A stretch of 64,000 nt of DNA from Thermoplasmata archaeon (GTDB taxonomy: Archaea; Thermoplasmatota; Thermoplasmata; GCA-020350865): the NCBI GenBank assembly GCA_020348445.1, contig CP070751.1:2149186-2213185 (forward strand). Direction: 5' to 3'. Positions 2,974 to 7,935 of the stretch are shown here, one piece after another (within the stretch, counting starts at the first letter, position 1; every line of letters begins with the position of its first letter). The notes below the pieces were generated by a model. It searched no databases. It was not told where the DNA came from and worked only from the letters and a program-made list of their open reading frames with translations. A program made the translations under genes and the position numbers.

Positions 2974-3429
2974 TCATTGGGCAAAATCAGCACTGTTTTG
3001 GTACTCCTCAGATGGATAATAGGCACCAGACAAGCCACAGAAGGGGCAAATGACGTCTGTAAAATAAGATTCACTCACAAAAAAGATACAGTTACATCTT
3101 GGACATATTATATCCTCTCCAAGATAATATGAACGTGTATAATCCAATATTTGATCATTTTGCTCAATTATATACATACTCGGCTTCACAGTCTTTTTCC
3201 AGTCGAAAAAGGAGAAGGCTGTTGTAAACAAAAAGAGTGGAAGGAGAATGAATAAAAGAAGTATCATCTCGATTTGTGCCTCACCGTATTTATTGATATT
3301 GATTATGGCAGAATAGTGGTTGTTTGAATACGCACAAACAAAGAGCCAAACCATGAGCAGAAAAATCCCCAGCATCAGAGAATCCCCAAACAATCTTATC
3401 ATCTTGATGGTGCAGACAGTTTTTGGCAA
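2974..3429 (-). CDS. 2-TM membrane protein with C-terminal Zn ribbon (paralog of 7462..7935)
   Basis: Two hydrophobic helices around NIN.YGEA..EMI; tail CPRC-x15-CPFCGLSG; start could be the ATG at 3402. Confidence 0.75.
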   Translation of the reverse strand: MPKTVCTIKMIRLFGDSLMLGIFLLMVWLFVCAYSNNHYSAIININKYGEAQIEMILLLFILLPLFLFTTAFSFFDWKKTVKPSMYIIEQNDQILDYTRSYYLGEDIICPRCNCIFFVSESYFTDVICPFCGLSGAYYPSEEYQNSADFAQ

Positions 3430-3643: not shown

Positions 3644-4612
3644 CTACTGGATCTTTACATCCTTTCTTATTTCTTTACCGCATACAAAACAGGAGTCATT
3701 TCTTTCAAGGGGCAGAACCGAGTAATTATTATTCAGAAAATCCATCAAAAGTACGCCTTTTAAAGTGGGCAGCCCACATACGATCTTCATTGCCTCGTTG
3801 GCCTGCACGCCACCCACTATTGAGGCTACACTTGAAAACGATGCTACAGCCCCAACATCGTACCCATCACAGGGATTTGAAAGCTCCATGATCTCGGCGT
3901 ACCGATCCAAGGGTATGGTGCATGCAAGACAAGCTCCATCTGGCAAATATGTCTGGACTCTGCCCTGAAACTCAGAAATCCCACCATCCACCAGTGGAGT
4001 GGAATTTTTTACACAGAAAGATGCAAGCCAGACCCTTGCCGGCATGTTGTCCAGGCCACTTAAAATCACATCAGCATTCAGTTTTTGCTCATCACATTCC
4101 TCGATCCTTTTTGGAATCGATTCAATTTTTGTATAAGGACTGTTTTCTTTTATCTTCTTTGCCAGAACCTCAGCCTTGTTCCTTCCAACATCCTCCTTCT
4201 TAAACAGGCTCCTGCTCACATTTGAGAGCTCCACAGTGTCGTAATCCACGATTTTTATGGTTCCGAATCCAAGATAGGCAAGGTTCTTTACTATCTCGTT
4301 TCCAAGAGCTCCGGCCCCCACAACCAAAGCATTGGCTTTCCTCAGCTTTTTCTGCCTATCTCCAAGTGAGATCATCTGCCTTGCCCAAATATAATCTACG
4401 ATGACCTCGTATGAAGGTTTGATATCTTCCTCAAAAGACGCTTCCTCCTCATCCTTCTTTACAAATATCAGGTTCGTTAGTTCGGGCTCGATTTCTAATT
4501 TACTGCAGATCTTATTCTTTAGTTCCTCCTCATCCTCATATTCAACTTCAAAAGATGAAACTGAAGGCAAAACAACTTTTACCCTCTTCTTACTTCTATC
4601 ACCGTGGGACAT
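3644..4612 (-). CDS. E1-like activating enzyme with N-terminal ubiquitin-like (beta-grasp) domain, E1b
   Basis: ARQ, LVVGAGALGNE, DYD.VELSNVSR, GLDN, LVDGG, Zn site CLAC...CFVC, candidate catalytic Cys in SNPCDG. About 70 extra N-terminal residues (KVVLP..SFEVE...LKNKICSKLEIEPELTNLIF) resemble the ubiquitin helix/strand pattern. Confidence 0.88.
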   Translation of the reverse strand: MSHGDRSKKRVKVVLPSVSSFEVEYEDEEELKNKICSKLEIEPELTNLIFVKKDEEEASFEEDIKPSYEVIVDYIWARQMISLGDRQKKLRKANALVVGAGALGNEIVKNLAYLGFGTIKIVDYDTVELSNVSRSLFKKEDVGRNKAEVLAKKIKENSPYTKIESIPKRIEECDEQKLNADVILSGLDNMPARVWLASFCVKNSTPLVDGGISEFQGRVQTYLPDGACLACTIPLDRYAEIMELSNPCDGYDVGAVASFSSVASIVGGVQANEAMKIVCGLPTLKGVLLMDFLNNNYSVLPLERNDSCFVCGKEIRKDVKIQ

Positions 4613-4651: not shown

Positions 4652-4903
4652 TTATTCGTCTTTTCCGCCAACGATGTCCAAGGGCATGATGGCAAGCTGA
4701 GAGTTCTCCACGATACCAAGTTCCTCTACAGTCCTGTTTTCATCCAAAACCTCGCCGCCGTACATAAGGGCCACCGCTGCGCTGTTTATGCCAAATGCCC
4801 TACATACCTCCCTTTTCACCATATTGATGGTGTGTCTTGGATCCACATCGATTTCAGCAAGGCCGGCCTCTTCGCCAATGGGTGCTTGTACCATTACCTT
4901 CAT
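4652..4903 (-). CDS. Ubiquitin-like protein precursor (mature end G79-G80, KDE pro-peptide)
   Basis: Aligns by eye to ubiquitin (DVDPRHTINMVK ~ EVEPSDTIENVK; LMYGGEVLDENRTVEELGI ~ LIFAGKQLEDGRTLSDYNI). The DNA reads ATC GTT GGC GGA AAA GAC GAA TAA. Confidence 0.9.
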   Translation of the reverse strand: MKVMVQAPIGEEAGLAEIDVDPRHTINMVKREVCRAFGINSAAVALMYGGEVLDENRTVEELGIVENSQLAIMPLDIVGGKDE

Positions 4904-4941: not shown

Positions 4942-6228
4942 CTATCCACCATGGGATACATTTACCGTGATTGCAACCTCGGCAATATATAGATTCCTAT
5001 CTTCAGCCCTTATTTTTATTTGATAGGTGCCGTTTGTAAGTAATTCTGTATCAAAGTAAGTGAGGTAAACGAGCTGATCATAATGGGTTTCGTTTACATG
5101 GGTCCAATCAACACTCCCGTTCCGAAAGAAAAACTGCACTTCATGAACATTATTCTCCACATCTGCAACCACTGCATAAACAGGGATGACACCGTCGATT
5201 TCATCACCATCGCGGGGTTCTAAAAATCTCGGCTCTGGTATATCTGGAGTATTATCTATAACGAACAGTTCCGACATCCCTTCAAAAGTCCTTCCCTTGG
5301 TATCTGTGAAGTTCACTTTGATATGATAGGTACCCTCATTGTGTAACCTTGTGTCAAATGCGAGGTGGTAACTGTTTTCAGAATAAGTGCCAACATTTCC
5401 AAGGTAATTCCATCCCAGACTAGTCTGACCCAAATAGAACCTCAATCCTTCGGCGGTAATCCTCCCGTCTAAGACAGTAATATTCGCAAAAACATTCATT
5501 TGATCCCTGAAAATCGGTGTTCCCAGTTGGTTTTTATACAACTCTCCGAAAAGCAGGACGTCATCCACACTTGAATGCTTCGAATTCTCATTTTGGTTTT
5601 TCGGGACAAACGGGCCTCCTATGAGCATGCTCAAAAGTACAGCAATGGTTACAAAGGCTATGATTTTTCTATATGAATTCTTTGGCTCTTCTCGCAAGGG
5701 TTTGACCTCCCCCTCATTATCTTCCGTTTGAAAAGTGGGCTTTGGTGGTTTGGGAGGAGACGAGAAAGAATCAGGAATCTTCTCCTTTTCATCGGAAAAA
5801 ACATGCACCTGGTCATCTTCGAGTTGGATCACATTTTCGTTTTTGTCAAGTGTAAAAAATGCCAATTCCTCCTTCTTGGGATCCACTATCAAGGCCGTTA
5901 CATAGTCTGAGAACTGCTGAAAGTTCCTTTGGGTGATGATATCGATTGGAGACATGAACAAACCAAAACCTGGATGGGAATGGTACCAACCCATTATCCT
6001 TCCCTGAATCTCCCCGGATAGTATCCTGTCTGTTATTTCTGCTATGCTTTTGGGATGCAACGAGGCCATTGTGGATTGCGAATCCTGCTCCCCGGTAATG
6101 GCCTCCTCAATTAAAATTGTATGATTCTCAGCATATCCTACGAGGAGTCCTATTATCTCGAAATCAGTGGCCTTGGCCTTCTCCATAATACTGTCAAGAA
6201 CCTTTTTCGGGATGCTGACATAAAACAT
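4942..6228 (-). CDS. Membrane-anchored Rpn11-like JAB/MPN+ (JAMM) isopeptidase with extracellular Ig-like domains
   Basis: FEIIGLLVG (catalytic Glu) and GWYHSHPGFGLFMSPIDIITQ (JAMM motif, about 5930-5990); TM IIAFVTIAVLLSMLIGGPF preceded by YRK; C-terminal Ig repeat FDT.LLTNGTYQIKIRAED. Confidence 0.88.
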   Translation of the reverse strand: MFYVSIPKKVLDSIMEKAKATDFEIIGLLVGYAENHTILIEEAITGEQDSQSTMASLHPKSIAEITDRILSGEIQGRIMGWYHSHPGFGLFMSPIDIITQRNFQQFSDYVTALIVDPKKEELAFFTLDKNENVIQLEDDQVHVFSDEKEKIPDSFSSPPKPPKPTFQTEDNEGEVKPLREEPKNSYRKIIAFVTIAVLLSMLIGGPFVPKNQNENSKHSSVDDVLLFGELYKNQLGTPIFRDQMNVFANITVLDGRITAEGLRFYLGQTSLGWNYLGNVGTYSENSYHLAFDTRLHNEGTYHIKVNFTDTKGRTFEGMSELFVIDNTPDIPEPRFLEPRDGDEIDGVIPVYAVVADVENNVHEVQFFFRNGSVDWTHVNETHYDQLVYLTYFDTELLTNGTYQIKIRAEDRNLYIAEVAITVNVSHGG

Positions 6229-6424
6229 ATGAACACATCTTTGCGACTACAATCTCTTCTAAAGCTTTACCTCAATAAATAGTTTTTTCCTGGCTTTCTG
6301 AGAATAATGAACTATCCCCTCCTCTGCACCCCTCCTCCCACCCTACGGCTATGTCATTAACAGTCAGTATCTTAAGCCTAGGGGCTCCCAATAACCCCAC
6401 CAACCTTATATCCCCTCCACCCCC

Positions 6425-6568
6425 CCCAAGAACAATATTTGTAGGTACGAATGCCTATCTATAGGGAAGATTCCCTCCACCGCTCCCCTCCGCCCACCCA
6501 AGAACAATATTTGTAGGTACGAATACTCCTTTATAGGGAAGATTCCTTCCACCACTCCCCTCCGCCCA
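6425..6568. repeat. 72-bp tandem direct repeat, 2 copies (6425-6496, 6497-6568)
   Basis: Manual alignment gives 65/72 identity, with the first 28 nt (cccaagaacaatatttgtaggtacgaat) identical. Confidence 0.9.
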
Positions 6569-6652
6569 CCCTATTCTGGTAATATGTTAGAAAAAAAGTT
6601 CTTTAAAATTGATAACCTCGATCCTCTCATCTATTCTCAATCACCCATGGGT

Positions 6653-7342
6653 CTATCCGCGTTTTATGGGAAATCCGAACATCCTGCAGATCTTGGCAAC
6701 CTCCTGGCATTTTTTTGTCTTGTAGGCGCTGTAAGGATTTGGGTCAGAGAGAAGGAAATAGAGGGCATTTATCACGGCTGCCAGTTTGGTGTTGGGTAGC
6801 CACTTCTTGCCTAGAATACTAACGCAGACCTTCCCTTTTTTGTGGGCAATGATATTGGGATGGGAAATATCTGTCAGCCATGTCACAGATGGAGGCTTGT
6901 AGGGATGTAGGTAAGACAGGGTCATTTTGAACTCATGCCATTTCACATACTCGACAAAGGGCCAGACACCCCTGTCGGCAAGATCCTTGACATAACCTCT
7001 TTCACATCTCAGCTTTCCGGTGTAAGTCATGAGATCCACCATTTTCACAAGGGGGAACTGGGTTCTCAGATAGTTGTACTCCTCGATCAACTCAGCCTCG
7101 TCTATTGCGGCAAAAATTCCAAGGGGCATAAGCCCCAGAACATCCGAATCTCCCATCTTCAGGTCACCTAGGGTAACCTCTTCAGAAATGACATTACCAT
7201 GCTGTACAAAACAAAGGTTTTTACTCTTAAGATTCATTGAGTTGCAAATATAATGCTTGAGCTTCCATAATGGGCAAGATGGTTTTATGTCCAAAGCTAT
7301 GGAAAACCCGTCACCTATTGGTGCGTAAACTACAAGCTGCAT
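6653..7342 (-). CDS. Ubl-E2 fusion: N-terminal ubiquitin-like domain plus ubiquitin-conjugating (UBC) domain
   Basis: UBC signature HPYKPPSVTWLTDISHPNI...GKVCVSIL...W.P...VINALYFLLSDPNP with the active-site Cys codon at 6824-6826. The N-terminus MQLVVYAPIG...MPLGIFAA parallels the free Ubl MKVMVQAPIG...MPLDIVGG. Confidence 0.9.
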   Translation of the reverse strand: MQLVVYAPIGDGFSIALDIKPSCPLWKLKHYICNSMNLKSKNLCFVQHGNVISEEVTLGDLKMGDSDVLGLMPLGIFAAIDEAELIEEYNYLRTQFPLVKMVDLMTYTGKLRCERGYVKDLADRGVWPFVEYVKWHEFKMTLSYLHPYKPPSVTWLTDISHPNIIAHKKGKVCVSILGKKWLPNTKLAAVINALYFLLSDPNPYSAYKTKKCQEVAKICRMFGFPIKRG

Positions 7343-7461: not shown

Positions 7462-7935
7462 TCATCGCCTGATGTTCCTTATGATCCTTACACTTGGTCT
7501 TGCCTCATCTTGGGAATGGGTCCCTGTCAAACCGCAATTCGGACAGGTTATAAGCCCGTTTGAACACGTTAAATTCGAATCAAATATGAATTGACATCTG
7601 GGACATACTGCAACTTTCTCTTGGAGGAATTGATAGGTGGTTGGGGTGTCAATCAGCAAATACTTATGGGACATAATCTTTCCCTTGGCCTTCCATGTCT
7701 GCCTCCAATCCATAAAGGATAATGCAACCGTGAGCATGAACAAAGGTAATAGAAAGAAAACCAGGACTATCATCTCGACATGGGCCTCGCCGTAGTTGTT
7801 GATATTTACAGTTGTGCGGTAATCATTGGAGAGATAAGCCGATAAAAACAGCCAAATCAACATAAGAAAAGAACCGAGCATTAAAAAATCCCCGACCAGT
7901 CTTAGACGTTTCATCTTATCGATTTTGCCTGCCAT
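7462..7935 (-). CDS. 2-TM membrane protein with C-terminal Zn ribbon (paralog of 2974..3429)
   Basis: RLVGDFLMLG..L...WLF..AY..N.Y....NIN.YGEAHVEMI shared with the paralog; tail CPRC-x16-CPNCGLTG. Confidence 0.75.
   Translation of the reverse strand: MAGKIDKMKRLRLVGDFLMLGSFLMLIWLFLSAYLSNDYRTTVNINNYGEAHVEMIVLVFFLLPLFMLTVALSFMDWRQTWKAKGKIMSHKYLLIDTPTTYQFLQEKVAVCPRCQFIFDSNLTCSNGLITCPNCGLTGTHSQDEARPSVRIIRNIRR

Follow-up and report, generated by a model that had tools for sequence, protein, structure and literature searches.

The gene designated here as Ubl'-E2' probably encodes an active E2 enzyme of the UBC type, with predicted thioester activity, to which a degenerate copy of the ubiquitin-like modifier (Ubl) of the same locus is attached as an integral N-terminal domain (Ubl'), a fossil of a Ubl-E2 fusion. 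The gene lies in a 64,000-nucleotide stretch of the genome of a Thermoplasmata archaeon (GenBank assembly GCA_020348445.1, contig CP070751.1, positions 2,149,186 to 2,213,185), and the whole of this stretch is called the window below. Positions are those of the window unless a protein is named.

Organization of the locus

The genes on the minus strand are arranged in the order ZnR, Ubl'-E2', JAB, free Ubl, E1b and second ZnR, with the MtxX-like gene and E1a beyond (Table 1). The open reading frame of Ubl'-E2' starts with the first ATG following a stop. The free Ubl is the actual modifier of the system, and the free Ubls are 76-86% identical among relatives. The genome consists of a single 5.16-Mb contig and contains only two E2s, namely, Ubl'-E2' and one in a separate, classical operon. 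Since Ubl'-E2' is the sole E2 of its family in the genome, it most likely works with the free Ubl and E1b; as implied by this gene content, E2' would be charged by E1b with the free Ubl.

Table 1. Features of the Ubl'-E2' locus, with their positions in the window
Feature	Positions	Strand	Evidence or remarks
ZnR, two-TM protein with cytosolic zinc ribbon	7462..7935	-	directly upstream of Ubl'-E2'
Ubl'-E2' fusion gene, 229 aa	6653..7342	-	ORF, Pfam, 56 full-length homologs
Ubl', degenerate Ubl domain, residues 1-77, beta-grasp (predicted)	7112..7342	-	BLASTP, AlphaFold2, Foldseek
Ala78-Ala79 (GCC GCA) at the Gly-Gly position of the modifier	7106..7111	-	A78, 7109-7111; A79, 7106-7108
UBC-fold E2 core, residues 80-229	6656..7105	-	HPN, 6854-6862; catalytic Cys173, 6824-6826
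JAB/JAMM protease with TM helix and Ig-like C-terminal part	4942..6228	-	Pfam JAB 1e-10, Big_7
Free Ubl, 83 aa, ending in GG-KDE	4652..4903	-	Pfam ubiquitin 7e-9
E1b, ThiF-type adenylation domain after its own beta-grasp domain	3644..4612	-	Pfam ThiF 5e-54
Beta-grasp domain of E1b, residues about 9-74	4391-4588	-	AlphaFold2
Second ZnR paralog, downstream of E1b	2974..3429	-	phmmer 3e-36 to the other ZnR
MtxX-like protein (methanogenesis marker Mmp4/MtxX), 250 aa	2122-2874		TIGR03270, 1e-61, 207.7 bits (cut-off, 190)
E1a, second ThiF-type gene	1333-2115	opposite strand	far side of the locus

The classical ubiquitin operon is located about 410 kb from the window (L055:5969-11387; G000:C1, about 2,561,968-2,567,386). 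It encodes a Ubl of 91 aa (ending in AGG-WIFQ), an E1 of 440 aa, an E2 of 178 aa, a JAB protein of 401 aa with a CxxC...CxxC motif at its end, and a 694-aa protein that contains RING-like Cys/His clusters as well as an internal repeat of a sequence segment. Therefore, with the classical operon and the locus in the window, the genome contains two distinct E1-E2 systems.

The spacer between Ubl'-E2' and JAB (6229-6652) is unusually long (424 bp; 60-80 bp in the related loci L001 and L061) and includes a 72-bp tandem repeat (6411-6571; 2.2 copies, 88% matches), of which one weaker copy was present about 16 kb upstream in the genome. An Rfam search of the spacer gave no match. PADLOC and NCBIfam held no family for the E2, Ubl or ZnR proteins, and there was thus no sign of a catalogued defence system.

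Sequence and predicted fold of Ubl'-E2'

In the BLASTP alignment, residues 1-82 of Ubl'-E2' were matched with residues 1-83 of the free Ubl (24 of 83 positions identical, 29%; one gap; E-value, 4e-12), and Ala78-Ala79 was placed opposite Gly79-Gly80 of the free Ubl. As judged from the sequences, the similarity is far beyond chance. With Pfam, UQ_con was assigned to residues 137-216 (1e-16; 61.3 bits, with a cut-off of 27), and the ubiquitin family (PF00240) matched residues 11-72 at 6.5e-5 with a score of 23.1 bits, which is under the gathering threshold of 25.4; a precomputed match to PF00240 or PF11976 was available for many homologs.

Structure prediction was performed with AlphaFold2 using an alignment of 65 homologs. 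Residues 2-73 were predicted as strand-strand-helix-strand-strand-3/10-strand with pLDDT of 87-95. For the whole protein, in which the UBC core was present, the mean pLDDT was 89.2 and the pTM was 0.63, with a pLDDT of about 70 in the linker; the pTM suggests that the relative orientation of Ubl' and the E2 core is perhaps not fixed. When the Ubl' part was compared with known structures by Foldseek, SUMO2/3 chains were obtained (TM by target 0.73-0.78; rmsd 2.2-2.4 A over 71-74 columns), and the rest of the protein matched many UBC E2 structures (TM by target 0.58-0.68). The HPN motif (H161-P162-N163) and Cys173 were invariant in the 65 family sequences. Ubl'-E2' has the features of PF00179 E2s, namely, the UBC fold with HPN and a Cys about 10 residues downstream.

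The first-pass annotation, made from the DNA letters and the translated reading frames, had proposed that the N terminus of the E2 aligns end to end with the free Ubl (MQLVVYAPIG with MKVMVQAPIG, and MPLGIFAA with MPLDIVGG) and that the Gly-Gly is replaced by Ala-Ala. Both pairs of segments were found in the translations, the alanines are where they had been placed, and the alignment points to a true paralog of the locus Ubl from which Gly-Gly has been lost. The same annotation would have given up its reading if the domain were not a beta-grasp; the AlphaFold2 and Foldseek results described above agree with that fold.

Residues at the Gly-Gly position

A search of 5.8 billion proteins yielded 56 full-length homologs of Ubl'-E2' (47-73% identity), and the Ubl domain was kept in all of them. 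Several shorter homologs (P0036, P0048 and others) were not accepted as real truncations, as they look like start-codon or contig-edge artefacts; L010 was not accepted as a Ubl-less locus, since the apparent absence was a masked run of N. At the position of Gly-Gly, the full-length homologs had the pairs AA (20), AG (17), GA (7), CA (4-5), GG (3), AT (1), GS (1) and SG (1). Thus, the loss of Gly-Gly holds for the protein of the window, but the Ala-Ala which the first-pass annotation had taken as its replacement is not fixed among the orthologs. The second residue of the pair was Gly in 21 of 55 homologs (about 38%) and Ala, Ser or Thr in the other 34, whereas none of the 45 free Ubls of the family had lost Gly-Gly. 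The substitutes Ala, Ser and Cys can each be reached from a Gly codon in a single step. The same is true of Asp, Glu, Val, Arg and Trp, none of which was observed at this site in the homologs. As only small residues occur and bulky or charged ones are absent, size is selected at this site and glycine is not.

By its sequence, Ubl' does not belong to the conjugatable (type-1) Ubls, as it has no C-terminal Gly and the surfaces for enzyme recognition are weakly conserved. As a predicted folded domain without Gly-Gly inside a larger protein, it has the form of an integral (type-2) UBL.

Two kinds of fusion

Fusions that retain Gly-Gly (L005, L021, L063, P0213 and P0214) have the motifs of free Ubls and short branches among them. 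No separate Ubl gene was found in their loci, nor was any Ubl besides the fused one found in the whole genome of L021. By analogy with the bacterial system described below, these fusions are presumably precursors cleaved by JAB. A free Ubl accompanies the degenerate fusions, as seen in the window, L001, L061, genomes of the same genus and G007. In the Ubl-domain tree, which was used for branch lengths only (few columns, long branches), the end branches of Ubl' were about ten times longer. The mean identity among orthologs of the window clade was 29% for Ubl' and 84% for the E2 core. Synonymous sites were saturated in most pairs, leaving few usable estimates of dN/dS; omega was 0.40 for Ubl' versus 0.04 for the E2 core in the least saturated pair, and ranged, where it could be estimated, from about 0.2 to 0.5 for Ubl' and from 0.03 to 0.05 for the E2 core.

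Of the 35 positions with at least 90% conservation in the free Ubls, 26 are lost in Ubl' and nine survive (P8, G10, K30, C34, L46, G50, L53, P74 and I77 in the numbering of the free Ubl). What is conserved in Ubl' is mainly the hydrophobic core, Gly49 (95%), the invariant Pro73, Ile76 and the small pair, and the surface is highly variable; Lys29 and Cys33 are frequent among the homologs. The small pair, the invariant Pro73 and the frequent Lys29/Cys33 point to a residual constraint, which could come from binding in a narrow groove like the JAMM cleft. In a sister clade (L003, L010 and L069, the last from G007), a Ubl' of about 65 aa with GG or GA is followed by the E2, a C-terminal zinc ribbon, and then E1. 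The logic is the same as in the window: one locus of G007 carries the fused E2 together with E1, and ZnR, JAB and the free Ubl are about 1.5 Mb away on the same chromosome.

Related operons and probable origin of the fusion

A locus scan with one genome per prokaryotic species yielded 44 loci, about 35 from Bathyarchaeia and several from Thermoplasmatota; the genomes closest to the window are labelled Thermoplasmata. The standard gene order is JAB-Ubl-E2-E1, and in the Bathyarchaeia operon (L012-L050) the protein sizes are about 520 aa (JAB), 80 aa (Ubl), about 195 aa (E2) and about 415 aa (E1). The Ubl and E2 genes adjoin in about 40 loci with a stop-start gap of mostly -16 to +12 nt (extremes, -29 and +29). 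Because the stop of Ubl and the start of E2 are so close or overlapping, fusion needs just the loss of the stop and start at the junction. The start of the unfused E2 homologs, M(V)DE..., corresponds exactly to the residues that follow the small pair in the fused protein.

On the E2-core tree, the window clade consists of fused proteins only (18 of 18; support, 99). Other fusions were the short-Ubl clade with GG or GA and a C-terminal zinc ribbon, the distant P0109, and L063 and the Thermoprotei pair L005/L021, which are nested in an unfused Bathyarchaeia clade. This tree requires five changes between the fused and unfused states, and well-supported branches make at least two of them necessary. 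Since resolution is poor in both the E2-core tree and the Ubl tree, the number and order of the fusions and the step of 'pair duplication' are inferred.

Gene neighbourhood and partner proteins

The conserved neighbourhood of the window clade is FEN1, ZnR, Ubl'-E2', the MtxX-like gene and the ThiF-type E1a. The presence of FEN1, along with other genes, identifies the organism as archaeal. Most relatives, including three genomes of the same genus (L015, L062 and L066), have JAB-Ubl-E2-E1b with an unfused E2 at another locus; in the window, L001 and L061, JAB-Ubl-E1b without an E2 of its own is placed between Ubl'-E2' and the MtxX-like gene. E1a was considered as a dedicated partner of Ubl'-E2' and was rejected, as E1a and the MtxX-like gene are conserved housekeeping-type neighbours in all relatives.

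The N-terminal domain of E1b was predicted to be a beta-grasp (AlphaFold2 pLDDT 93-95, pTM 0.84), and among the related operons that were checked, nearly all encode an E1 with an N-terminal beta-grasp; in most of these operons the E2 is unfused. The E1 N-domain matched the free Ubl by phmmer at 1e-4 to 5e-6 in several loci among L012-L049, and in the ESM Atlas clusters of Bathyarchaeota ThiF+ubiquitin proteins, PF00240 was found in 72-77% of the E1 members. According to the matches with the free Ubl, both E1 and E2 have therefore acquired Ubl-derived N-terminal domains, and recruitment of E2 seems to be independent of Ubl', since the E1 domain is common in operons with a Ubl-less E2.

ZnR was directly upstream of Ubl'-E2' in all nine window-clade loci with upstream sequence. 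Its membrane part is 74% identical and its cytosolic zinc ribbon 42-46%, with a conserved V(R/K)IIKNIR tail. A zinc ribbon with the CPxC-x16-CPxC spacing that ZnR also has (compared by eye) was found at the C terminus of the E2 in P0050, P0058 and P0063; as the ribbon is fused to E2 in these relatives, ZnR is regarded as a general partner of E2. In a complex prediction for Ubl' (1-82) and ZnR (78-157), the ipSAE was 0.00 and the ZnR part was poorly folded, so that this value counts neither for nor against an interaction.

Proposed explanation and alternatives

The explanation that we prefer starts from an adjoining Ubl-E2 pair, which, as synteny and the trees suggest, would have fused through loss of the short junction. 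Where the fused copy is the sole Ubl, Gly-Gly and a modifier-like sequence are kept, and the protein would presumably be a precursor cleaved by JAB; in the window clade, the separate free Ubl gene would supply the modifier, and the fused copy would have lost Gly-Gly. Given this loss, Ubl' is most likely no longer released or adenylated. It would then have diverged about ten times faster, with mainly the core, Pro73, Ile76 and the small-small pair being kept, and may now serve as a lineage-specific tether or regulator at the N-terminal helix of the E2. A fossil of a Ubl-E2 polyprotein had been offered in the first-pass annotation as the second choice; it is the reading that fits best, with the Ubl gene directly upstream of E2 in the related operons and with fusions that retain Gly-Gly.

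The first choice of that annotation was a docking module for E1, the DUB or a substrate, with the eukaryotic arrangement reversed. In a more specific form of this idea, Ubl' would hold the E2 in a site where E1b or the JAMM protease binds Ubl, acting as a pseudo-substrate or as a 'reverse UFD', and would be needed for efficient charging or for keeping the E2 at the membrane protease. Such a module, which we consider rather unlikely, would account for the restriction to small residues at the Gly-Gly site and for the conserved Pro73 and Ile76 tail, both of which a tail in a narrow groove needs, and it would agree with the retention of the domain in all 56 homologs and with the syntenic position of JAB, whose gene immediately follows that of Ubl'-E2' in the window, L001 and L061. 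However, most of the residues conserved in real modifiers are gone from Ubl', and its surface is highly variable while E1b and JAB from the same genomes are 57-78% identical, which argues against a place for Ubl' in the conserved Ubl sites of E1b or JAB; mimicry of the modifier in those E1 or JAMM sites appears unlikely from the sequences. JAB and E1b are also elsewhere in most genomes of the same genus, and a tail running on into a helix should not fit the adenylation pocket seen in E1-Ubl structures. The idea of a reversed UFD is further weakened by the beta-grasp that E1b itself has at its N terminus, as do the E1s of operons in which the unfused E2 works without Ubl'. It is unlikely, too, that Ubl' takes an active part in the cascade by making the protein a 'Ubl-modified E2' encoded as such in the genome. 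In this case, Ubl' would anchor the E2, either on the second subunit of an E1b homodimer or in the JAMM cleft of the membrane protease, or would recruit substrates that bind Ubl. If this were true, archaea would have found their own, independent way to recruit and target an E2, with fast co-evolution with the partner, like the UFD-E2 contact or the SUMO-modified Ubc9 of eukaryotes.

It is improbable that Ubl' is a functionless remnant, kept because its deletion would harm the start or the N-terminal helix of the E2. Indeed, no other part of the locus evolves as fast as this domain (its dN is about tenfold that of the core), and the hallmark residues of the modifier are gone from it. However, the full length of the domain is retained, its hydrophobic core is intact, its fold is confidently predicted, and omega, where estimable, is below 1 and not about 1; Ubl' is not simply decaying. 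Pro73 and Gly49 are conserved, and, as seen from the unfused E2s, which start with M(V)DE, a leader is not required for the helix. Even less credit, to the point of being very improbable, is given to a polyprotein still in use, in which JAB would cut after residue 79 and free a second, divergent modifier. A precedent exists in bacterial BubAB, a pre-protein that a JAB domain cleaves behind a single conserved Gly (PMC11601596); in the window, a JAB gene adjoins, and a terminal Gly is present in a part of the homologs. However, most homologs end in Ala, Ser or Thr where the free Ubls always have Gly, a tenfold excess in evolutionary rate over its enzymes is not expected of a conjugated modifier, and a conserved free Ubl gene is present. 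An integral domain derived from a former fusion remains our preferred reading.

Comparison with known systems

In the bacterial BubAB system (Type I Bub), cleavage of a Ubl-E2 pre-protein by a JAB domain after a conserved Gly has been experimentally shown (PMC11601596). Ubl'-E2' resembles it in the direct fusion of a beta-grasp Ubl to the N terminus of an E2 fold and in an operon that also encodes a JAB/JAMM peptidase and an E1 (PMC11601596). In BubAB, the cleavage frees the sole Ubl, and BubB has Ser in place of Cys and is without the C-terminal UBC helices (PMC11601596). In contrast, Ubl'-E2' has an Ala-Ala junction, the canonical HPN...Cys, and a separate free Ubl gene. Thus, of the features that make a locus BubAB-like, the JAB/JAMM gene is encoded alongside, but a conserved junction Gly and the lack of a separate Ubl gene are not seen. 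L005, L021 and L063 show both a conserved junction Gly and the lack of a separate Ubl gene; these and P0213 and P0214, that is, the archaeal fusions that retain Gly-Gly, are the closer analogs of BubAB.

The operons of the Caldiarchaeum/Asgard type contain Ub, E1, E2, RING and Rpn11, with stand-alone E2 and E1 and a small RING E3 (PMC3082918, PMC5654768, PMC6043591). Like these, the archaeal system of the window comprises, judging from its genes, an E1-E2 cascade and a JAMM protease, which would mature a C-terminally extended pro-Ubl. It differs in having an N-terminal beta-grasp on both E2 and E1, no RING, and two-TM zinc-ribbon proteins.

Integral (type-2) UBL domains are well known in eukaryotes, for example, in Rad23, Ddi1 and parkin, where they have no conjugatable Gly-Gly, are not released and take part in non-covalent interactions. 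Ubl' is similar to them as a built-in ubiquitin fold without a conjugatable Gly-Gly, and clusters of Ddi1 and ubiquilin were weak structural neighbours in the ESM Atlas comparison. Its descent from the modifier gene of its own system, in contrast, can still be traced via living intermediates. To our knowledge, no integral UBL domain is known on a canonical E2. The UFD is a beta-grasp domain on canonical E1s that binds helix 1 of E2 in E1-E2 recruitment; Ubl' is also a beta-grasp within a cascade, but it is located on the E2, is without a conserved surface, and occurs beside an E1b that already has its own beta-grasp. Bacterial YukD-E2 fusions (PF00179 and PF08817) were found in the ESM Atlas clusters. 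They also have a beta-grasp N-terminal to a UBC-like domain in a single polypeptide, but are bacterial, belong to another beta-grasp family, are about 350 aa in length and have no detectable sequence kinship with Ubl'.

Thus, bacterial Ubl-E2 fusions (Bub type I) and the YukD-E2 fusions of protein-cluster databases were already known; a canonical Cys-type archaeal E2 with a non-GG integral Ubl beside a free Ubl, and the preserved evolutionary series leading to it, are new. The emergence of built-in UBLs from free modifiers is rarely visible. Here, adjacent Ubl and E2 genes, precursor-like fusions that retain Gly-Gly, and a redundant, fast-evolving domain without Gly-Gly on a conserved E2 are found side by side, and this series offers a natural setting in which to study how an E2 is affected by a tethered Ubl. 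No description of the archaeal JAB-Ubl-E2-E1 operon family was found in the searchable full-text literature, which is weak evidence of absence; the present analysis draws attention to this operon, which is widespread in Bathyarchaeia and Thermoplasmatota and has membrane-anchored components. A typical Bathyarchaeia-type operon was also present in L022, a contig labelled Candidatus Acidiferrales (Acidobacteriota); it nests in Bathyarchaeia in both trees and is probably a mis-binned contig and not a case of transfer.
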